DNA from: a virus
Lineage: Duplodnaviria; Heunggongvirae; Uroviricota; Caudoviricetes
DNA length: 10,075 nt
Virus record (IMG/VR): IMGVR_UViG_2654587588_000010
Span: 1-10,075 of that record
Strand: one strand, 5' to 3'
The translations under genes were made by a program, and so were the position numbers. The notes beneath the pieces were generated by a model. That model was given only the letters and a program-made list of their open reading frames with translations. It was not told the origin of the DNA and ran no database searches. Positions 1-10,075 of the stretch are shown here, in pieces (position 1 is the first letter of the stretch; each line of letters opens with the position of its first letter).

Positions 1-2085
<2,085 letters not shown>

Positions 2086-2098
2086 CCATCAACGAAAA

Positions 2099-2118
2099 AG
2101 CCCACATCTGTGGGCTTT
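2099..2118 (+). terminator. Possible weak intrinsic terminator after the autotransporter gene
   Basis: Seen: 8-bp stem AGCCCACA / TGTGGGCT with a 3-nt loop, 14 nt after the stop codon, followed by only TTT. The short T-run makes this weak. Confidence 0.3.
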
Positions 2119-2401
2119 CATGTCACCAGGAGCCGCGGCTCCTTTGCGTATCCTTTTATGTCTCTTCACCGTCTGGTCGGCGTCCTGCTGAGACTTCTAA
2201 CTTCCTGTTTTTATTGGTGTTGTCCTTATACCGTCCAATCATGATTGGGCTGGCGGAGTTTGAATAAATATTGTATTGCTTTGATTTTTTAATGATTTTG
2301 TTTAATTCAGCTTTTGTGTGTATACCTAATCGTATACCAATGGCTGTAAGTTAATGTGAAATGAAAGCGCATTTTTACTTGGATTGATGCTATATCGTAC
2401 A

Positions 2402-2704
2402 GGAAAAAATTTTTTTTCGGAAGAACTGTTCACACTGTTCACCATTTGGTTTTCTCCTTTTATTTCAGCATGATAGGTGGTGAATAATGGGTGAAGGGTG
2501 AACATTCGATTCTTCACCTCCGGCATTCTGCCGGTGTGACTCATACCGGTGATTAATCCCCCGTACTGAAATCACACAGGGAGAAAAAAGTTTTTTTTTG
2601 ATTTGATTGTTCACACTGTTCACCTTTCATTTTTCTCTTTTAATTTCAGTATGATAACGGGTGAATACACGGTGAAGGGTGAACAGTGGATTGTTCACCT
2701 TCGG
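2402..2704. repeat. crr-like cis replication region: two direct repeats of about 122 bp at a 180-bp period, each carrying TGTTCAC-type iterons
   Basis: Seen: 2402-2522 and 2582-2704 align nearly base for base, each with TGTTCACACTGTTCACC, GGTGAA, GGTGAAGGGTGAAC and TTCACC motifs. Established (from memory): P4 crr is two 120-bp direct repeats with type I iterons bound by alpha, next to the 3' end of the alpha gene. Confidence 0.6.
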
Positions 2705-2717
2705 GGAATTCAGGGAT

Positions 2718-2742
2718 AAAAAAAGACCGGCAGATGCCGGTC
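2718..2742 (-). terminator. Rho-independent terminator of the leftward alpha operon
   Basis: Seen: minus-strand hairpin GACCGGCATCTGCCGGTC (plus 2725-2742) followed immediately by a 7-nt U-run (plus 2718-2724), 17 nt after the alpha stop codon at 2759-2761. Confidence 0.5.
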
Positions 2743-2758
2743 AGATGAGTCATGAGGG

Positions 2759-5092
2759 TCAGGTTGTTGCAGGGTCGTCACATTTTGGCAGCCAGTCGCC
2801 GTAGCTTTCCTCTTTCAGCGTCAGGTTGGTCTGTATCCCCTGTTTGGTATGGCGCTTCTCGTAATTCAGTCCGTATTCCTTCAGCATCACCGGCAGCCCC
2901 AGCCCGAACATTTTCAGACTGAGTACATTCCGGTAGCCGTTTGCCTCCATGTAGGCCAGATAGGCGTGATAGAGGTATTTACGGTAATTACGCGGGATGA
3001 TACTGGCGTTCCCCATATACATGCCGCTGGTCTGCGGCAGGGTTTCCAGATAGCCGATAAAATCAAACGTCGGGTCGGCATCCCGTTTGATGTTCAGCGC
3101 CTCGTCTGAGTTCTGCTGGGACTGAAGCAGTGACCGGGCGAGCATCGGGTCGCTGAACTTCTGCATCAGGTGACGCACGATGACCGCCAGCTCGCGGGTG
3201 ATTTTGTCCTTAAGCTGCGGGTCGCGCTCCTGCGGGGCTATCTGTTCCGGGAAGTGAATAATCACCCGCCGGCGTGACACGCCGCCGCTGCGGTCGGTGA
3301 AGCGCATCGGGTTATTGTTCACGGCCAGAATCACCGCCGGGATGTGCGTGGAGTACGCATCCCGGTATTTCGGGTCAACGGACACCGCATCGCCGCCGGT
3401 GATGGCCTTGAGTCCGGCACCGTCGCCGCTCCATTTTTCCTGGTCCGGCAGGCGTATCAGTGAGAAGCCAGTTAACGCGGCACGTTCACGCGGGGATTCC
3501 AGCGTCTCGATGGTGGCCGACGTGGCGTTATCCTCCCCGGCCAGCAGGGTGGCGATTTCGGCCATGATACTTTTGCCGCTGCCGCCGGGACCGGTCACCT
3601 CCAGAAAGAGCTGCCAGTCGTAGCGGTTTGCCAGCACCATAAACAGTGCGGCCAGAATCACGTCGCGTTTTTCCGCACGACCACCGGCGGCACGGTCAAG
3701 CCAGCGCCAGAACGCGGGAGCGTGGGTTTCCAGCGTTTCCCCTTCCACCGGCGGGGTGAAATCCACATCGCACAGGGTACGCATCCAGTGTGACGGACTG
3801 TGCGGGTGGAACGTGCCGTTCTGCGTGTCGGGCACGCCGTTACGAAAGCCAATCAGGCGGCGGGAGGGGGCTTCCTGCTGCGGAATAATCAGCTTCAGGG
3901 TGTCCACCACGGAGGCCACCTTCCCGGAGGAGAACGGCGCACGCAGACGCTGAAACAGCCCGGCCACATCCCGGGCAAAGTCCTGTGGCGGCAGCACCTT
4001 CCAGACACCATTTTCATAACGGGACAGAAGCTGGCCGTTGGCATCGACCGCGAGCGCCTCGCCGTAATGCTCATAGATACGCATGGCCTTTTCGCTGGTA
4101 CTCATGGCGGAAAACTCCGCTTCACTCATGGTGTCGAACGGGCTTTCAGCCGGTGGCCGGATGGCATCGTAAATGGCCTTACGGGTGGCCTCCCCGCCGT
4201 ACTGCGTGAAGGCATCATTCCAGTCACCGAAGACCGGTGGCAGGGCAACAACACCTTCACACGCATCTGCGGCTGCGGCGGCTTTTTTCTGGCCGTCACC
4301 GCTGAGGTCACGGTCAGCAGCAAGGACAATCTGACAGGCCGGATGCTTCTGCCGGGCAAGGCTGGCCAGAGAAAGGAGGTTCACGGAAGAAAGCGCCACC
4401 ATCACCGTTTCACCGGTCAGGTGATGTACGGTAAGTGCGGTCGCGTATCCCTCCGCTATCCACAGACGTTTTCCGGCCTGATTCTGTCCTTCAAGGGTGT
4501 GACAGGTGCCCCTGACCTGTCCGCCTTTCAGGGTGCGCTTACGGCCGTCAGCACTGATTAACTGAAGGTTAACCAGTTCGCCGCTGTCGTCATACAGTGG
4601 CACCACAAGGTCACCGGCGCGCCAGCTCACGCCACCGGCTCTGTGTGTGCCGGTCAGCATCCGGCATTCCCGGCCGGGAAAGCCCTTGCGGGTCAGGTAG
4701 GCGTTACCGGTTCCGGGACGGGTTTTCGCTATCAGGGTTTGTGCCAGTGCGGCGGCGTTCTTCCGGGCAGCGTCTGTTTCAGCACCGGCGGCAGCCGTCA
4801 CTGCCGGGTCAGCCGGGGGCAGGCTGCCGGTCACGGCAGCCACCTTTGCGGCCGCGTCGGACGGGGAGACACCAAACACCTTTTCAACCAGTTTCAGGCC
4901 GTCACCGGCACCACACTGATTGCAGTACCAGGTGCCGCGCCCCTCCCTGTCATCAAAACGGAAGCGGTCACTCCCGCCACAGACCGGACAGGGCTGATGA
5001 CGGTTCTTCAGCACCTGAATCCCCAGCGCCGGGAGAATACGCGGCCAGTGGCCGAGCGCATGGCTGACGGTGGCGGTTACGTTCATTTTCAT
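2759..5092 (-). CDS. alpha: P4 alpha-type primase-helicase replication protein (777 aa)
   Basis: Seen: N-terminal zinc-binding motif CPVCGGSDRF...WYCNQCG; Walker A GPGGSGKS in the central NTPase domain; RBS AAGGAGA 8 nt before ATG at 5092. Established: P4 alpha is a 777-aa primase, helicase and origin-binding protein. Lies next to the crr repeats as in P4. Confidence 0.9.
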   Translation of the reverse strand: MKMNVTATVSHALGHWPRILPALGIQVLKNRHQPCPVCGGSDRFRFDDREGRGTWYCNQCGAGDGLKLVEKVFGVSPSDAAAKVAAVTGSLPPADPAVTAAAGAETDAARKNAAALAQTLIAKTRPGTGNAYLTRKGFPGRECRMLTGTHRAGGVSWRAGDLVVPLYDDSGELVNLQLISADGRKRTLKGGQVRGTCHTLEGQNQAGKRLWIAEGYATALTVHHLTGETVMVALSSVNLLSLASLARQKHPACQIVLAADRDLSGDGQKKAAAAADACEGVVALPPVFGDWNDAFTQYGGEATRKAIYDAIRPPAESPFDTMSEAEFSAMSTSEKAMRIYEHYGEALAVDANGQLLSRYENGVWKVLPPQDFARDVAGLFQRLRAPFSSGKVASVVDTLKLIIPQQEAPSRRLIGFRNGVPDTQNGTFHPHSPSHWMRTLCDVDFTPPVEGETLETHAPAFWRWLDRAAGGRAEKRDVILAALFMVLANRYDWQLFLEVTGPGGSGKSIMAEIATLLAGEDNATSATIETLESPRERAALTGFSLIRLPDQEKWSGDGAGLKAITGGDAVSVDPKYRDAYSTHIPAVILAVNNNPMRFTDRSGGVSRRRVIIHFPEQIAPQERDPQLKDKITRELAVIVRHLMQKFSDPMLARSLLQSQQNSDEALNIKRDADPTFDFIGYLETLPQTSGMYMGNASIIPRNYRKYLYHAYLAYMEANGYRNVLSLKMFGLGLPVMLKEYGLNYEKRHTKQGIQTNLTLKEESYGDWLPKCDDPATT

Positions 5093-5106
5093 GGTGTTGT
5101 TCTCCT

Positions 5107-5427
5107 TCAGTGCAGTACCGGCGCTTTTATGTGACGGGCACAGAGTTCATCCATCACAACCAGCCCGAGAAAGGACAGCGACGGCGCGGCCTTCAGGGGG
5201 CCGGATTCCATTAAATCTTCCAGCAGGGCACAGGCTATCTGACGCCCTTTTTCCTCACCGTGCTGGCGCAGATAAAAGCCCTCCAGCTCAGCGGCGATGG
5301 CCGCCTCCAGTGATTCAAGGGTGAGATGCGGGTAGCGGTGCTGACGTTCGCACACGGTCAGCCAGGCACAGGCGACAGCGCGACGGTAAAGGGCAGCGCG
5401 TAAGACGGGCGGTAAGGGTGTTTTCAT
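5107..5427 (-). CDS. Small protein of the P4 left operon (106 aa), function unknown
   Basis: Seen: RBS GGGAGG 7 nt before ATG at 5427; stop TGA at 5107-5109 sits 14 nt before the alpha start, inside the alpha RBS region. Immediately upstream of alpha and co-oriented. Confidence 0.55.
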
Positions 5428-5562
5428 TTGTTTTCCTCCCTGTGACAGATGACTGCATTCCGTGCCGGTTGCATTAACTGATAAGGCATATCTGCGTCTC
5501 CTGAAGACGTGCGTATCCCTGCGCGAATACGCACATTTAATTTTTCGGGTGTCGTTTTTTAA

Positions 5563-6018
5563 TTACAGATAATTGCGGTAACTGTTATCCGGGGTGATTT
5601 CCGGGTCAGGCTCCGTGCGGGGAATTTCCCGCCATTCCCGCGCCACCGGTGCCGCCCGGCTGACCGGAACAGGGTCCTGCGGGTAAATATCCAGATATTT
5701 CTCCCGCCATTTCTGTAATTCCGGGTCTCCGGCCATTTCTTTCAGTACCGCATGCCGGTTTACGGGGCTGCGTCTGAACAGGTCAGGACGGTCACAGGTA
5801 AATTTCCGCAGAAAACGCCCCAGCGGGATATCTGTGGTGCGCCCGTCAGCGAGGATACGCACAAGGATACTGAATTTACGGCGGTACGGGTTCCAGACAA
5901 TGTCCGGGCAGCGGTACGGCATTTCCCACGGAATACCGTCTTCCAGAATGCCAACCACGGCCACATCGGGAAAACCGGCAGAACGGTAAATCTCACCGGG
6001 CTGGGGAAAATCAAACAT
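5563..6018 (-). CDS. P4 orf151-like protein (151 aa), function unknown
   Basis: Seen: RBS GGGGAGA before ATG at 6018; the start overlaps the stop of the upstream ORF (ATGTTTGA), indicating translational coupling. Established (from memory): P4 has a 151-codon ORF between epsilon and alpha. Confidence 0.6.
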   Translation of the reverse strand: MFDFPQPGEIYRSAGFPDVAVVGILEDGIPWEMPYRCPDIVWNPYRRKFSILVRILADGRTTDIPLGRFLRKFTCDRPDLFRRSPVNRHAVLKEMAGDPELQKWREKYLDIYPQDPVPVSRAAPVAREWREIPRTEPDPEITPDNSYRNYL

Positions 6019-6298
6019 GCGTCTTGTCTCCCCGGTCTTTCTGCTGGGCGAGAAAATCGCGGCACAGGCCTTTGGCTTTCAGCTCATTCAGCACAAAATC
6101 AATATCTTCATTCAGGTAGCTGAAAATATGCGGAATGTAGAGCTGATGCAGGCCGGAGAGTTCACGGTGAATCAAATCACCCCCAACAAACTGGGATACG
6201 GCGCTGGCGCGGTTGAGCTTATGGTAAGCCTCAATGCTGAGGTGTTCACGGGCGTCATGACGCGCTGAGACGGTCTGAGGGGCTTTTTTATTACGCAC
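6011..6298 (-). CDS. epsilon: Probable P4 epsilon-type derepression protein (95 aa)
   Basis: Assigned from position (directly upstream of orf151 in the left operon) and size only; no motif recognised. GTG start at 6298 overlaps the stop of the eta-like ORF (GTGCGTAA). Confidence 0.5.
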
Positions 6299-6488
6299 GG
6301 GACACCTCCATCACCGGCAGACGGGCAGCAAGGGAGAGCACATAGTCACGGACAAGGGAACGGCGGGCACTGCGTTCATCACCGGCGACGGTGCGAAGCA
6401 TGCAGATACGGGGGTGACGGTCTGCGCGACGGACAGCCGCAAACACAAAGACAAATTCAGGGTGTGAGGGGGTAAGGGTTGTAGCCAT
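6291..6488 (-). CDS. Small ORF (65 aa) at the position of P4 eta
   Basis: Seen: internal ATG at 6488 of the long 6291-6890 ORF, preceded by AGGAGG (plus 6497-6502) that overlaps the seqC-like element; stop overlaps the epsilon start. Upstream part of the long ORF rejected. Confidence 0.4.
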
Positions 6489-6499
6489 GATGGCAGCCT

Positions 6500-6540
6500 C
6501 CTTGAAGTAACAGTTACAGCTACCACTGGAGTTCCTACGC
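6500..6540 (-). promoter_or_regulatory. seqC-like antisense target: two 8-nt blocks complementary to seqB
   Basis: Seen: plus-strand CCTTGAAG (6500-6507) and GTTCCTAC (6531-6538) are reverse complements of CTTCAAGG and GTAGGAA in 6565-6586. Established: in P4, CI RNA pairs with seqA and seqC on nascent leftward transcripts to terminate transcription and block translation. Confidence 0.5.
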
Positions 6541-6545
6541 TCATG

Positions 6546-6625
6546 GGTGGTAGCCCGGACGGGGGTAGGAATACCGGCCTTCAAGGAAACCGGCCAGCCC
6601 GAAGGCTGCCCCGCCCGGACCACCA
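6546..6625 (-). ncRNA. cI: CI-type immunity RNA candidate carrying seqB; ends approximate
   Basis: Seen: GC-rich segment with long-range pairing (GGTGGT 6546-6551 with ACCACC 6619-6624; GGGCGGGG with CCCCGUCC allowing one G-U) enclosing a CAGCC-UUCG-GGCUG tetraloop hairpin and the seqB blocks at 6565-6586. Boundaries not determinable from sequence alone. Confidence 0.45.
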
Positions 6626-6721
6626 TTATCTGACAGAGGCTACGGTTTAAAAACCACAGCCAGAAAAACAGGTGTGCCGAAGCAACGACGTAAAAAAAGA
6701 CGCATGGCGCGTCATATGTCG

Positions 6722-6745
6722 CCTTGAAGTAACTCGGGTTCCTAC
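6722..6745 (-). promoter_or_regulatory. seqA-like antisense target in the early leader
   Basis: Seen: CCTTGAAG (6722-6729) and GTTCCTAC (6738-6745), the same two blocks as seqC, complementary to seqB. Confidence 0.5.
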
Positions 6746-6776
6746 GCCCGGCTGCCGATTTTGCGGCAGCGGAAAA

Positions 6777-6806
6777 ACTATATCCGCAAATGCCGGAAAA
6801 AGGCAA
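6777..6806 (-). promoter_or_regulatory. Candidate early leftward promoter (PLE-like)
   Basis: Seen on minus strand: -35 TTGCCT (plus 6801-6806), 18-nt spacer, -10 TATAGT (plus 6777-6782); predicted start near 6770, about 25 nt upstream of seqA and about 395 bp downstream of the predicted PLL start. Established (from memory): P4 PLE lies about 400 bp downstream of PLL. Confidence 0.4.
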
Positions 6807-6841
6807 GCCAGAAAAAGGGAGTTTTTGCAGAACAGGCATCA

Positions 6842-7108
6842 TCATGCGTCGTACCCCCGTTTGCGTCCGGCAATGCGCCCGGCCATCCATGCGGTGACTT
6901 CAGAGTGCAGCCAGGCCACATTTTTACCGCCAAGACTCACCTGCGGCGGAAATTCCCCCTTACGGATGAGTTCGTAGATGGTCGAGCGTGACAGGCCGCA
7001 CAGGTGCATCACTTCCGGCAGACGTAAAAAACGCTCCTGCGTGATGTCCGGCAGCGGCATCAGTGGCGTCACAGGGGCGGGAGACGGGGAAGAAAAAACA
7101 GCTTGCAT
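6842..7108 (-). CDS. vis: Vis / AlpA-family DNA-binding regulator (88 aa)
   Basis: Seen: helix-turn-helix segment [30 protein letters not shown] typical of the AlpA family; RBS GAGG before ATG at 7108; sits between the late-promoter region and the immunity module as P4 vis (orf88) does. Confidence 0.85.
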
Positions 7109-7210
7109 CGGGCTACCTCGTTAATGTCCATACAGCACCGGATAAGTCCGTCCGGCTTCGGGTAGCGCTTTATTTTGTGAATATTTTCAGCAGACGCAAC
7201 AGGGGGGATT

Positions 7211-7228
7211 TGTTCCGGCAGTCTTACA
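7211..7228 (-). promoter_or_regulatory. Ogr/Delta-type activator site (TGT-N12-ACA) of a leftward late promoter (PLL-like)
   Basis: Seen: TGTTCCGGCAGTCTTACA. Established: P2/P4 late promoters carry TGT-N12-ACA centred near -55; that places the start near 7165, 57 nt upstream of vis. Confidence 0.4.
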
Positions 7229-7386
7229 ATGGCTGTGTATTTTTTGTACATCAGCGCCAGATAGCTTTAAAACGCTCTGGAAGGAGCTGGAAAAAATTAT
7301 AGTGAAATACAAATTGTTTTTTCTTATTTATTTCAGTGAATTAATAAAAATAAAAAGTAATAAACAGCACAAAAAGCCCATCAACG

Positions 7387-7491
7387 GGTGAACAGTGGTG
7401 AACAGACGGTGAACAGTCATTACTGCGATTGTTCACCCTTTAAATTACTGTATTACTTATCTTTTTTCTTATGGTGAACAGAGGTGAACAG
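7387..7491. repeat. Origin-of-replication iteron cluster (six GGTGAACAG / TGTTCACC copies) in an AT-rich intergenic region
   Basis: Seen: GGTGAACAG at 7387-7395, 7397-7405, 7408-7416, 7473-7481 and 7483-7491, plus inverted TGTTCACC at 7430-7437, flanked by AT-rich DNA (7290-7380, 7440-7510). Same motif as in the crr repeats. Established (from memory): P4 ori consists of alpha-bound type I iterons. Confidence 0.6.
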
Positions 7492-7569
7492 TAAAATATA
7501 AAAAAACAAACAGTAAGCCGGTTTTTCCTGCGACCTTTTCCTGGCTTGCCGGTCTGAGGATGAGTCTCC

Positions 7570-7636
7570 TGTGTCAGGGCTGGCACATCTGCAATGCGTC
7601 GTGTTGTTGTCCGGTGTACGTCACAATTTTCTTAAC
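7570..7636 (+). promoter_or_regulatory. Psid-like late promoter with Ogr/Delta-type activator site
   Basis: Seen: TGT-N12-ACA at 7570-7587 (TGTGTCAGGGCTGGCACA); weak -10-like CACAAT near 7622-7627; RBS GAGGAG at 7647-7652; sid ATG at 7660. Confidence 0.45.
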
Positions 7637-7659
7637 CTGAAGTGACGAGGAGCCGGAAA

Positions 7660-8394
7660 ATGTCTGACAACACCATCCCTGAATATCTGCAACCCGCGCT
7701 GGCACAACTGGAAAAGGCCAGAGCCGCCCACCTTGAGAACGCCCGCCTGATGGATGAGACCGTCACGGCCATTGAACGGGCAGAGCAGGAAAAAAATGCG
7801 CTGGCGCAGGCCGACGGAAACGACGCTGACGACTGGCGCACGGCCTTTCGTGCAGCCGGTGGTGTCCTGAGCGACGAGCTGAAACAGCGCCACATTGAGC
7901 GCGTGGCACGCCGGGAGCTGGTACAGGAATATGACAATCTGGCCGTGGTGCTGAATTTCGAACGTGAACGCCTGAAAGGGGCGTGTGACAGCACGGCCAC
8001 CGCCTACCGGAAGGCACATCATCACCTGCTGAGTCTGTATGCAGAGCATGAGCTGGAACACGCCCTGAATGAAACCTGTGAGGCGCTTGTCCGGGCAATG
8101 CATCTGAGCATTCTGGTACAGGAAAATCCGCTCGCCAACACCACCGGGCATCAGGGCTACGTCGCACCCGATAAAGCTGTCATGCAGCAGGTGAAATCAT
8201 CGCTGGAACAGAAAATAAAACAGATGCAAATCAGCCTCACCGGCGAGCCGGTTCTCCGGCTGACCGGACTGTCAGCGGCAACACTCCCGCACATGGATTA
8301 TGAGGTGGCAGGCACACCGGCACAGCGCAAGGTGTGGCAGGACAAAATAGACCAGCAGGGAGCAGTGCTTAAGGCCAGAGGACTGCTGTCATGA
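7660..8394 (+). CDS. sid: Sid capsid size-determination (external scaffold) protein, 244 aa
   Basis: Seen: ATG at 7660 with RBS GAGGAG 7 nt upstream is preferred over the GTG at 7642 in the ORF track; stop overlaps the delta start (ATGA). Established: P4 late operon is sid-delta-psu and Sid is 244 aa (from memory). Confidence 0.85.
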   Translation: MSDNTIPEYLQPALAQLEKARAAHLENARLMDETVTAIERAEQEKNALAQADGNDADDWRTAFRAAGGVLSDELKQRHIERVARRELVQEYDNLAVVLNFERERLKGACDSTATAYRKAHHHLLSLYAEHELEHALNETCEALVRAMHLSILVQENPLANTTGHQGYVAPDKAVMQQVKSSLEQKIKQMQISLTGEPVLRLTGLSAATLPHMDYEVAGTPAQRKVWQDKIDQQGAVLKARGLLS

Positions 8395-8891
8395 TTTACT
8401 GCCCGTCGTGTGGACATGTTGCTCACACCCGCCGCGCACATTTCATGGACGATGGCACCAAGATAATGATTGCACAGTGCCGGAATATTTATTGCTCTGC
8501 GACATTTGAAGCGAGTGAAAGCTTTTTCTCTGACAGTAAAGATTCAGGAATGGAATACATTTCAGGCAAACAGAGATACCGCGATTCACTGACGTCAGCC
8601 TCCGGTAGCATGAAACGCCCGAAAAGAATGCTTGTTACCGGATATTGTTGTCGGAGATGTAAAGGCCTTGCACTGTCAAGAACATCGCGGCGTCTGTCTC
8701 AGGAAGTCACCGAGCGTTTTTATGTGTGCACGGATCCGGGCTGTGGTCTGGTGTTTAAAACGCTTCAGACCATCAACCGCTTCATTGTCCGCCCGGTCAC
8801 GCCGGACGAACTGGCAGAAAGCCTGCATGAAAAACAGGAACTGCCGCCAGTACGCTTAAAAACACAATCATATTCGCTGCGTCTGGAATGA
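8391..8891 (+). CDS. delta: Delta late-gene transcriptional activator: two tandem Ogr-like zinc-finger modules (166 aa)
   Basis: Seen: N-terminal module MIYCPSCGHVAHTRRAHF...CRNIYCSATF and a second C-x2-C...C-x4-C module CCRRCKGLA...CTDPGCGLVF. Established: P4 Delta is 166 aa and resembles a covalent dimer of P2 Ogr. Confidence 0.9.
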   Translation: MIYCPSCGHVAHTRRAHFMDDGTKIMIAQCRNIYCSATFEASESFFSDSKDSGMEYISGKQRYRDSLTSASGSMKRPKRMLVTGYCCRRCKGLALSRTSRRLSQEVTERFYVCTDPGCGLVFKTLQTINRFIVRPVTPDELAESLHEKQELPPVRLKTQSYSLRLE

Positions 8892-8964
8892 GGGCTGCCG
8901 GTTAACACCGGCCGTCGCCGCACACCGTATTTTTATTCTTCAGCATGATGAGAAAGATATAACG

Positions 8965-9207
8965 ATGGAAAGCACAGCCTTACAGCAGGCCTTTGACACC
9001 TGTCAGAATAACAAAGCAGCATGGCTGCAACGCAAAAATGAGCTGGCTGCGGCCGAACAGGAATATCTGCGGCTTCTGTCAGGAGAAGGCAGAAACGTCA
9101 GTCGCCTGGACGAATTACGCAATATTATCGAAGTCAGAAAATGGCAGGTGAATCAGGCTGAACCGCCCCGGGAATCCTGGAGACTAAACTCCCTGAGAAA
9201 GAGGTAA
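8965..9207 (+). pseudogene. psu: psu (polarity suppression / capsid decoration) truncated by IS insertion
   Basis: Seen: ORF starts MESTALQQAFDTCQNNKAAW... and switches at about codon 65 (near 9159) into IS-derived sequence, ending after 15 more codons at TAA 9205-9207. Established (from memory): P4 Psu is about 190 aa with this N-terminus. Confidence 0.7.
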
Positions 9208-9212
9208 ACAGG

Positions 9213-9539
9213 ATGACTAAAAATACACGTTTTTCCCCCGAGGTCCGTCAACGGGCAGTTCGTATGGTTCTGGAAAGTCAGGATGAATATGACTCACAGT
9301 GGGCGGCAATTTGTTCCATTGCCCCAAAGATTGGCTGTACGCCGGAGACTCTGCGTGTCTGGGTTCGCCAGCATGAGCGGGATACCGGGAGCGGTGATGG
9401 CGGACTCACCACCGCTGAACGTCAGCGTCTGAAAGAGCTGGAACGTGAAAATCGTGAACTGCGCCGCAGTAACGATATCCTTCGCCAGGCTTCCGCTTAT
9501 TTTGCGAAGGCGGAGTTCGACCGCCTCTGGAAAAAATAA
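9213..9539 (+). CDS. IS3-family transposase OrfA (108 aa, helix-turn-helix plus leucine zipper)
   Basis: Seen: [22 protein letters not shown]...[28 protein letters not shown], matching IS629-group OrfA as recalled; stop TAA at 9537-9539 overlaps the orfB ATG. Confidence 0.9.
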
Positions 9540-10075
9540 TGCCACTGCTGGATAAGCTGCGTGAGCAGTACGGGGTCGGACCGCTATGCAGCGAACTGCA
9601 TATTGCCCCGTCAACGTATTACCACTGTCAGCAACAGCGACATCATCCTGATAAACGCAGTGCCCGTGCGCAGCGCGATGACTGGCTGAAGAAAGAGATA
9701 CAGCGCGTATACGATGAAAATCATCAGGTATACGGTGTGCGTAAAGTCTGGCGCCAGTTGTTACGCGAAGGTATCAGGGTGGCCAGATGTACAGTGGCGC
9801 GCCTCATGGCGGTTATGGGACTTGCCGGTGTTCTCCGGGGTAAAAAGGTCCGTACGACCATCAGCCGGAAAGCCGTTTCCGCATGCGACCGCGTAAACCG
9901 TCAGTTCGTGGCAGAACGTCCAGACCAGTTGTGGGTGGCTGATTTTACCTGGGTAAGCACATGGCAGGGCTTCGTTTATGTGGCGTTCATCATTGATGTG
10001 TTCGCCGGATACATCGTGGGATGGCAGGTCTCATCATCCATGGAAACAACATTCGTGCTGGATGCACTGGAGCAG
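9539..10075 (+). CDS. IS3-family transposase OrfB (DDE integrase domain), 3'-partial at the window edge
   Basis: Seen: frame open from ATG 9539 to the window end (179 codons): [29 protein letters not shown]...QLWVADFTWVSTWQGFVYVAFIIDVFAGYIVGW. Missing from the ORF track because no stop codon is reached. Confidence 0.85.
   Translation, partial: MPLLDKLREQYGVGPLCSELHIAPSTYYHCQQQRHHPDKRSARAQRDDWLKKEIQRVYDENHQVYGVRKVWRQLLREGIRVARCTVARLMAVMGLAGVLRGKKVRTTISRKAVSACDRVNRQFVAERPDQLWVADFTWVSTWQGFVYVAFIIDVFAGYIVGWQVSSSMETTFVLDALEQ

Follow-up and report, generated by a model that had tools for sequence, protein, structure and literature searches.

Which functions are combined in the 551-bp spacer between the divergent genes vis and sid, and do they act on each other? 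The question was raised by a stretch of viral DNA of 10,075 nucleotides (IMG/VR record IMGVR_UViG_2654587588_000010, positions 1 to 10,075), the whole of which is called the window below. The window represents a P4-like satellite prophage. Its positions 2404-9158 showed 97% identity to phage P4 (X51522) and span crr, alpha, ORF106 (cnr), ORF151, epsilon, the cI region, ORF88 (vis), sid, delta and the start of psu. The 1.2 kb surrounding the vis-sid spacer were 96% identical to X51522 8722-9923. The following genes flank the spacer or encode products expected to act on it:

6842-7108, minus strand: vis (P4 ORF88), AlpA-family helix-turn-helix protein (Pfam Phage_AlpA, 7e-21), equivalent to ORF88 of X51522
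7660-8394, plus strand: sid, capsid size-determining scaffold of 244 aa, matching the P4 sid CDS (frame checked)
8391-8891, plus strand: delta, two-domain Ogr/Delta zinc-finger activator of 166 aa (Pfam Ogr_Delta, two matched stretches)
2759-5092, minus strand: alpha, primase-helicase of 777 aa (Pfam Zn_Ribbon_Prim, Toprim, D5_N, Pox_D5)

The genes alpha, delta, vis and sid are all intact; vis is the first gene of the leftward late transcript, and the Delta protein aligned with P4 Delta at 98% identity. We consider it very probable (about 0.93) that the spacer is the P4 origin ori (ori1), situated between the divergent late promoters PLL (leftward) and Psid (rightward). A first-pass annotation of the window had already proposed that the origin and late-promoter control share this intergenic region. 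The proposal is borne out by the 96% identity to P4, the rep_origin annotation of the homologous P4 sequence, the six type 1 repeats listed there and the intact genes. As far as the sequence can tell, the identification is right but already known, since it reproduces the P4 annotation contained in the GenBank record and the older literature. It carries little weight as a discovery, for P4 is already on record as having its ori placed between PLL and Psid, together with the iterons that alpha binds, the TGT-N12-ACA sites and crr.

The arrangement is widespread. Approximately 1,000 of 5,426 complete E. coli genomes possess the vis-sid spacer, which was chromosomal in every case. A search of genome contigs with Sid as query also disclosed at least one near-identical locus.

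Probable origin core, crr and alpha

The elements of the putative origin and its distant counterpart are located as follows:

7387-7415, plus strand: type 1 iterons 1 to 3 (GGTGAACAG), starting at 7387, 7397 and 7408; "ori type 1 repeat" in P4
7430-7437, minus strand: type 1 iteron 4, inverted (TGTTCACC); kept in relatives though outside the search pattern used to find them
7438-7472: AT-rich spacer of 35 bp (83% AT) between iterons 4 and 5; nearly invariant in relatives
7473-7491, plus strand: type 1 iterons 5 and 6 (GGTGAACAG), starting at 7473 and 7483
7289-7368: left AT-rich tract (82-85% AT), whose sequence is poorly conserved among relatives
7524-7553: block TTTCCTGCGACCTTTTCCTGGCTTGCCGG upstream of the Psid dyad, conserved in the footprint of the relatives and containing the direct repeat TTTTCCTG twice (family D8)
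2404-2703: crr, two 120-bp direct repeats with ten type 1 iterons (at most one mismatch each) between 2427 and 2699

Six exact octamers, GGTGAACA or its inverted form TGTTCACC, reside in the spacer. They are direct at 7387, 7397 and 7408, inverted at 7430 and again direct at 7473 and 7483, and the five direct copies extend to GGTGAACAG. The whole window contains 12 exact octamers against 0.37 expected, a number that none of 200 shuffled sequences reached. Besides the six copies in ori, five belong to a second cluster at 2436-2699 and one is a stray copy at 780. These figures, together with the tract of 82-85% AT, confirmed the earlier description of six 8-9 bp iterons and AT-rich DNA lying between two dyads. 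The AT content is also raised to 70-75% at 7429-7528.

In the GenBank record of P4, the homologous vis-sid stretch is annotated as "origin of DNA replication" (rep_origin, 9086-9809). The six "ori type 1 repeats" of that record map one-for-one onto the octamers of the window; three "ori type 2 repeats" are listed as well. P4 ori (X51522 9031-9582) has the same flanking genes and the same six iterons with spacings of 10, 11, 22, 43 and 10 bp, and every iteron of the core is identical in both. The window thus reveals the order typical of a P4-type origin, i.e., three direct, one inverted and two direct type 1 iterons, as well as the AT-rich region associated with them. The 35-bp spacer at 7438-7472 is likely the region of unwinding and priming.

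Two candidate interpretations were given up. A terminator-like hairpin at 7408-7437 turned out to be iteron 3 paired with the inverted iteron 4. It had also been our first guess that the vis-sid cluster is crr and that ori lies beside int; the P4 annotation gives the reverse.

The homology to P4 begins exactly at the first base of crr (P4 4291). Its 120-bp repeats are homologous to P4 4291-4590, a stretch that the P4 record annotates as 'cis required region for replication'. By this homology, crr is to be regarded as the other cis-acting portion of the bipartite origin of P4, placed on the same molecule as the vis-sid ori at a distance of 4.7 kb. The window also encodes the initiator that belongs to such an origin, an alpha protein combining a primase, an SF3 helicase and an origin-binding winged helix. 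Alpha residues 671-770 matched PDB 1ka8, the origin-binding winged-helix domain of P4, with E=1e-63. In crr, alpha and Delta the window and P4 are alike.

The mechanism of P4 alpha is established (Ziegelin 1993; Yeo 2002, as cited), and near-identity to P4 suggests that it applies to the window. Alpha, encoded 2 kb leftward, would bind the six GGTGAACA iterons by its C-terminal winged-helix domain and the ten crr iterons likewise, with ori and crr required on one molecule. It would then open the adjacent conserved AT-rich DNA and, by its own primase and helicase domains, prime and unwind it. Because crr is needed in cis, a negative result obtained with an ori fragment alone plus alpha in trans would be uninformative. 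The origin assay proposed in the first-pass annotation, which was of this kind, has to be corrected in that crr must be supplied in cis.

With the iteron origins of plasmids (pSC101, R6K, P1, RK2) the putative origin has in common that initiator repeats are spaced by about one helical turn and adjoin an AT-rich unwinding region (PMC2777425). It differs from them in its initiator, a single primase-helicase-winged-helix polypeptide instead of a Rep protein recruiting DnaB and DnaG, and in its bipartite structure, as the distant second iteron cluster crr is needed in cis.

One may ask whether the prophage is in decay, with the iterons left as relics in DNA that now serves the promoters only. With psu disrupted by IS629 and the right end of the element falling beyond the window, the prophage may be defective overall; P4-like elements are, moreover, often partly degraded (PMC8628076). 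Against this, all six ori iterons are exact and identical to P4, the ten crr iterons are all present with at most one mismatch each, and alpha is a full-length ORF of 777 aa with every domain. We thus regard a relic as very improbable and retain the reading of the spacer as a P4-type ori.

Probable activator sites and late promoters

Perfect TGT-N12-ACA dyads occur at three positions in the vis-sid spacer, and each outer gene is preceded by a -10-like hexamer:

7211-7228: predicted PLL activator site (TGTTCCGGCAGTCTTACA), TGT-N12-ACA, centre 111.5 bp from the vis ATG
7570-7587: predicted Psid activator site (TGTGTCAGGGCTGGCACA), extended palindrome TGTGnCAGnnCTGnCACA, centre 81.5 bp from the sid ATG
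7608-7625: second Psid dyad (TGTCCGGTGTACGTCACA), 38 bp downstream of the first, overlapping the -10 region at about -17/-18
7172-7177, minus strand: -10-like hexamer CAAAAT of PLL, 45 bp from the dyad centre, with a putative start near 7165
7622-7627, plus strand: -10-like hexamer CACAAT of Psid, 46 bp from the dyad centre, with a putative start near 7634

The first two dyads had been noticed before and both proved to be perfect, while the third one (7608-7625) had been missed. The statement that they 'face outward' has no meaning for the dyads, whose specified bases form a palindrome; divergence is a property of the promoters. For the window as a whole, the number of TGT-N12-ACA motifs is not significant (five found, 2.5 expected, five or more in 24 of 200 shuffles). 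Their clustering is: three of the five fall into the 551-bp spacer, where 0.14-0.22 would be expected, and the probability of three or more was 0.0002-0.0015 in 20,000 Markov simulations. The Psid dyad, the second Psid dyad and the -10 region agree base for base with P4, as does the position of the PLL dyad. The PLL dyad differs from that of P4 by two bases of its spacer (TGTTCCGGCAGTCTTACA in the window, TGTTCAGGCTGTCTTACA in P4). A second PLL dyad near -18 was also considered, but the only candidates, TGT-N12-CAG at 7176-7193 and TGT-N12-TCA in the E. coli elements L006-L008, were judged too weak.

The geometry fits dyads centred near -55 from the putative starts of PLL and Psid, the third dyad then being centred at about -17/-18 of Psid. 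Of the two hexamers, that of PLL (ATTTTG on the plus strand) shows no variation among 11 aligned relatives (68-100% identity) and is largely conserved in a footprint of 109 sequences. The Psid hexamer, written as CAnAAT, is invariant in the same 11 relatives and conserved in the footprint. A consensus scan of 7050-7700 detected no sigma-70 consensus promoter, which fits activator-dependent promoters.

Julien and Calendar (J Bacteriol 1995) are reported to have found that Delta protects a site at -55 in every late promoter of P2 and P4 and, in Psid, another one near -18; the second dyad near -18 is reportedly a feature of P4, unlike P2. The transcription starts, Delta/Ogr footprints and origin activity ascribed to this region are presumably those known from P4 work. 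Binding, origin firing, start sites and activator dependence may be assumed for the window by analogy to that work or from the geometry.

The Ogr-dependent late promoters of P2 share TGT-N12-ACA as their consensus (PMC3931495), and Delta is a homologue of Ogr, both proteins promoting P2 and P4 late gene expression (PMC8628076; PMC7552001). The window contains such a dyad upstream of each putative promoter and, in delta, the gene of a cognate Ogr-family zinc-finger activator. Like PLL and Psid, the P2 late promoters PP, PO, PV and PF carry TGT-N12-ACA upstream, are devoid of a -35 consensus and are activated by the Ogr family (PMC3931495); they differ in driving virion genes and in not being wrapped round a replication origin.

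From these similarities the following scheme can be proposed. PLL and Psid, having no usable -35 region, would need an Ogr-family zinc-finger activator, either the element's own P4-type Delta or the Ogr supplied by a P2-type helper that infects the cell or is induced. The activator would bind the TGT-N12-ACA dyad near -55 and at Psid probably also the second site near -18, which overlaps the -10 region. Psid would drive sid, delta and psu, and transcription of delta from Psid would create a positive feedback. PLL would drive vis and the replication operon ending in alpha.

Conservation among relatives and the question of coupling

IMG/VR was scanned with the pattern of the first three iterons only, which yielded 110 distinct segments of 900 bp whose best alignments to the window were 71-99% identical. 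The Psid dyad was a perfect TGT-N12-ACA in all 110 segments, 178-183 bp downstream of the first iteron, and its spacer occurred in 22 variants with the consensus TGTG(C/T)CA…CACA. The second Psid site was likewise present in every segment at +218 to +221, 38 bp beyond the first, as TGT-N12-ACA in 34 and as TGT-N12-AGA in 76 of them. Iterons 4-6, the 35-bp AT spacer and the block 7524-7553 were almost invariant, iterons 4-6 and the AT spacer being outside of the search pattern. On the vis side, only 36 segments exhibited a perfect N12 dyad and 29 had TGT-N11-ACA; the rest were worse. As the PLL dyad is unconserved in two thirds of these wider relatives, a role for it is less certain than one for the Psid dyad.

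More divergent E. coli elements, L006-L008 (68-78% identical) and L015 with a spacer of 917 bp, gave the same picture. L006-L008 share the vis-ori-sid layout with a spacer of 540-551 bp, RGTGAACA iterons arranged as in the window except that the sixth is GTGAATA, and a Psid dyad 81.5-83.5 bp from the sid ATG. They differ by the second Psid site (TGT-N12-AGA), another repeat patch and a short one-domain Delta of about 80 aa instead of the two-domain protein of 166 aa. The PLL dyad of L007 and L008 is N11/N13 or absent; in L006 its position is kept and its spacer differs. Hence, the pair of Psid dyads, the iteron layout and the 35-bp AT spacer with the ori core are family-wide, and the canonical PLL dyad, by which the origin is bracketed, and the type 2 repeat sequence are restricted to the P4 subgroup, to which the window belongs.

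The conservation data also bear on the nature of the dyads, which might be sites of CRP or another host factor, or chance matches, rather than Ogr/Delta sites. The ends TGTG...CACA of the Psid dyad TGTGTCAGGGCTGGCACA resemble CRP half-sites, and TGT-N12-ACA specifies only six bases, with a whole-window count that is not significant. The CRP consensus TGTGA-N6-TCACA, however, spans 16 bp (TGT-N10-ACA); a CRP-binding site was rejected on spacing, as the span is 18 bp here and is kept in all relatives. In the Psid dyad the N12 spacing was perfect in 110 of 110 segments while the spacer sequence varied, a gene for an Ogr-family activator follows directly downstream in the element itself, and the motif is the published Ogr-dependent consensus (PMC3931495). 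This explanation is thus extremely unlikely, and the dyads are taken as Ogr/Delta sites in the following.

The first-pass annotation had further suggested that alpha binding and Delta/Ogr activation could interfere with each other. We obtained no support for this suggestion. Between the end of the last iteron at 7490 and the Psid dyad there are 79 bp, and between the PLL dyad and the start of the first iteron at 7387 there are 158 bp, so that the binding sites are separate without any overlap. In addition, PLL and Psid both fire away from the iterons. The distance between iterons and Psid dyad drifts by 5 bp (178-183 bp). This amounts to half a turn of the helix and speaks against sites held on a fixed face of the DNA.

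A sharper form of this idea is a functional coupling, in which divergent transcription activated by Delta/Ogr affects how the origin fires, or complexes of alpha with the iterons influence the two promoters. Transcription could act through negative supercoiling of the DNA between PLL and Psid, which would aid melting of the AT spacer, or through steric or topological interference. The ori lies wholly inside two outward-firing promoters whose dyad centres are 359 bp apart, the distance between iterons and Psid dyad stays within 178-183 bp in relatives of merely 71-99% identity, and the conserved block 7524-7553 is situated between ori and the Psid dyad. Supercoiling arising from divergent transcription is an established principle (twin-domain model), which also speaks for coupling. 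If coupling exists, this principle predicts by analogy that divergent transcription would help rather than hinder origin melting. On the other hand, the gaps of 79 and 158 bp, the varying helical phase and the PLL dyad, which most relatives have in degenerate form (36 of 110 have the canonical one) so that the bracketing is not conserved, all argue against coupling. P4 replicates as a plasmid without a helper, and no report of such a coupling was found in the literature searched. We thus consider coupling unlikely and adhere to the reading of an ori1 that lies between PLL and Psid.

The patch at the position of the type 2 repeats

Scattered substitutions aside, the spacer diverges from P4 in one stretch only (about 7229-7308), in which the following feature is located:

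7254-7293: variable patch at the site of the three 'ori type 2 repeats' of P4, with YTNRAA units at 7266, 7277 and 7287, 10 bp apart

The type 2 repeat sequence of P4 (three copies of CAYTTAAAGY in a patch of about 45 bp) is absent from the window. Its site is occupied by another allele, …GCTTTAAAAC GCTCTGGAAG GAGCTGGAAA. The immunity region left of the spacer (6484-6758) also differs from P4.

Three patch alleles are common in E. coli, that of the window in 373 genomes, that of P4 in 439 and an O157-type allele in 274. In all of them a YTNRAA unit recurs every 10 bp in the same register. Within a panel of nine elements, we found no co-variation of the patch allele with Vis, the form of Delta, the immunity region, alpha or crr. 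Each of the three alleles occurs with one and the same Vis protein (WP_001149160.1), and the short as well as the long Delta was found together with the window's allele and with that of P4. In this panel, the fixed differences that separate these two alleles fell within 7200-7399. The exceptions, which look phylogenetic, were two sites in the crr spacer and another at about 6400. The patch seems to be a freely recombining segment with three common alleles, a small and possibly undescribed detail.

The phased YTNRAA units would fit a phased-A-tract bend or a degenerate protein site. Two further readings are conceivable, though we give them little credence: the patch may be a selected exchangeable module, and the near-constant ori-Psid spacing and the block 7524-7553 may reflect a real coupling of replication and late transcription. 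Minimal ori1 comprises 123 bp and is reported by Tocchetti et al. (1999) to exclude the type 2 repeats. It is doubtful whether these repeats are a family-defining trait.

Directly observed in this study are the sequence features and their statistics, the homology to P4, the conservation and the presence of the trans-acting genes. Together they cleanly annotate a prophage region that is very common in E. coli, and the conservation check separates those parts of the textbook P4 arrangement which are general in the family from those found in the P4 subgroup only. If the type 2 repeats mattered for origin function, the element in the window could behave differently from P4. Were the patch indeed an exchangeable module, it could tune PLL, the opening of the origin, or both.

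Conserved elements at the Psid promoter

Around the activator dyad of Psid, the rightward late promoter on the sid side of the replication origin (ori), two elements attracted attention:

7524-7553, block TTTCCTGCGACCTTTTCCTGGCTTGCCGG, between ori and the Psid dyad, at approximately -82 to -110 of Psid
7608-7625, third perfect TGT-N12-ACA motif, overlapping the Psid -10 region

The block, in which TTTTCCTG is present twice, was strongly conserved among the approximately 110 relatives (distinct IMG/VR segments picked by the iteron triplet) and could be a candidate site for a regulator or a host factor. The right half-site of the 7608-7625 dyad reads ACA in 34 and AGA in 76 of 110 relatives. Since only these two triplets were encountered, the site occurs in two discrete variants.

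Iterons of the origin and the patch at the type 2 repeat position

Neighbouring iteron pairs with a spacing of 10 bp (7387-7404 and 7473-7490) form the sequence GGT-N12-ACA, which is one base off the Ogr/Delta activator dyad. Within the iteron clusters of two divergent vis-sid spacers (L006 and L015) a perfect TGT-N12-ACA is even contained. The dyad-like motifs in all three clusters are possibly a coincidence.

A mosaic hot spot covers 7229-7308 (core 7254-7293), at the place which in P4 is occupied by the 'ori type 2 repeats'. Three common alleles of this patch were found among E. coli genomes (373, 439 and 274 genomes, respectively), which in a panel of nine elements exhibited no linkage to other variable sites. 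All patch alleles kept one YTNRAA unit per 10 bp in a single register.

Immunity region, left flank and interrupted psu

Divergence from P4 peaks in the immunity region (6484-6758), where each 100 bp contains 38-88 variable columns. Rfam disclosed the following RNA features here and nearby:

6543-6630, minus strand, C4/CI antisense RNA
6693-6770, minus strand, isrK
6731-6783, minus strand, a1b1 targets of the C4/CI antisense RNA

This prophage and P4 are probably heteroimmune. Compared to P4, the alpha 3'-end and terminator region (2714-2783) diverges as well, including a 9-bp insertion at ~2747 shared with some relatives.

The left flank (1-2403) is host DNA, in which an AIDA-type autotransporter adhesin ORF (ypjA/ehaD-like, 270-1730) adjoins crr, the second cis-acting half of the origin. 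E. coli ATCC 8739 (L005) harbors the same adhesin-crr junction, and its integrase adjoins ssrA. The integration site is of the CP4-57 type. At the right end of the window (8965-10075), psu is cut after approximately codon 63 by an IS629/IS3-family insertion starting at ~9153, inside which the following was located:

9494-9610, ALIL frameshift pseudoknot

The element contains no intact Psu.

Forms of Delta

The loci of E. coli M10 (L017) and HCM-26C-1 (L020) possess a P4-type ori and a perfect dyad of PLL, the leftward late promoter on the vis side, yet encode a short one-domain Delta of ~81 aa instead of the two-domain protein of 166 aa. The form of Delta is swapped independently of its own target sites.
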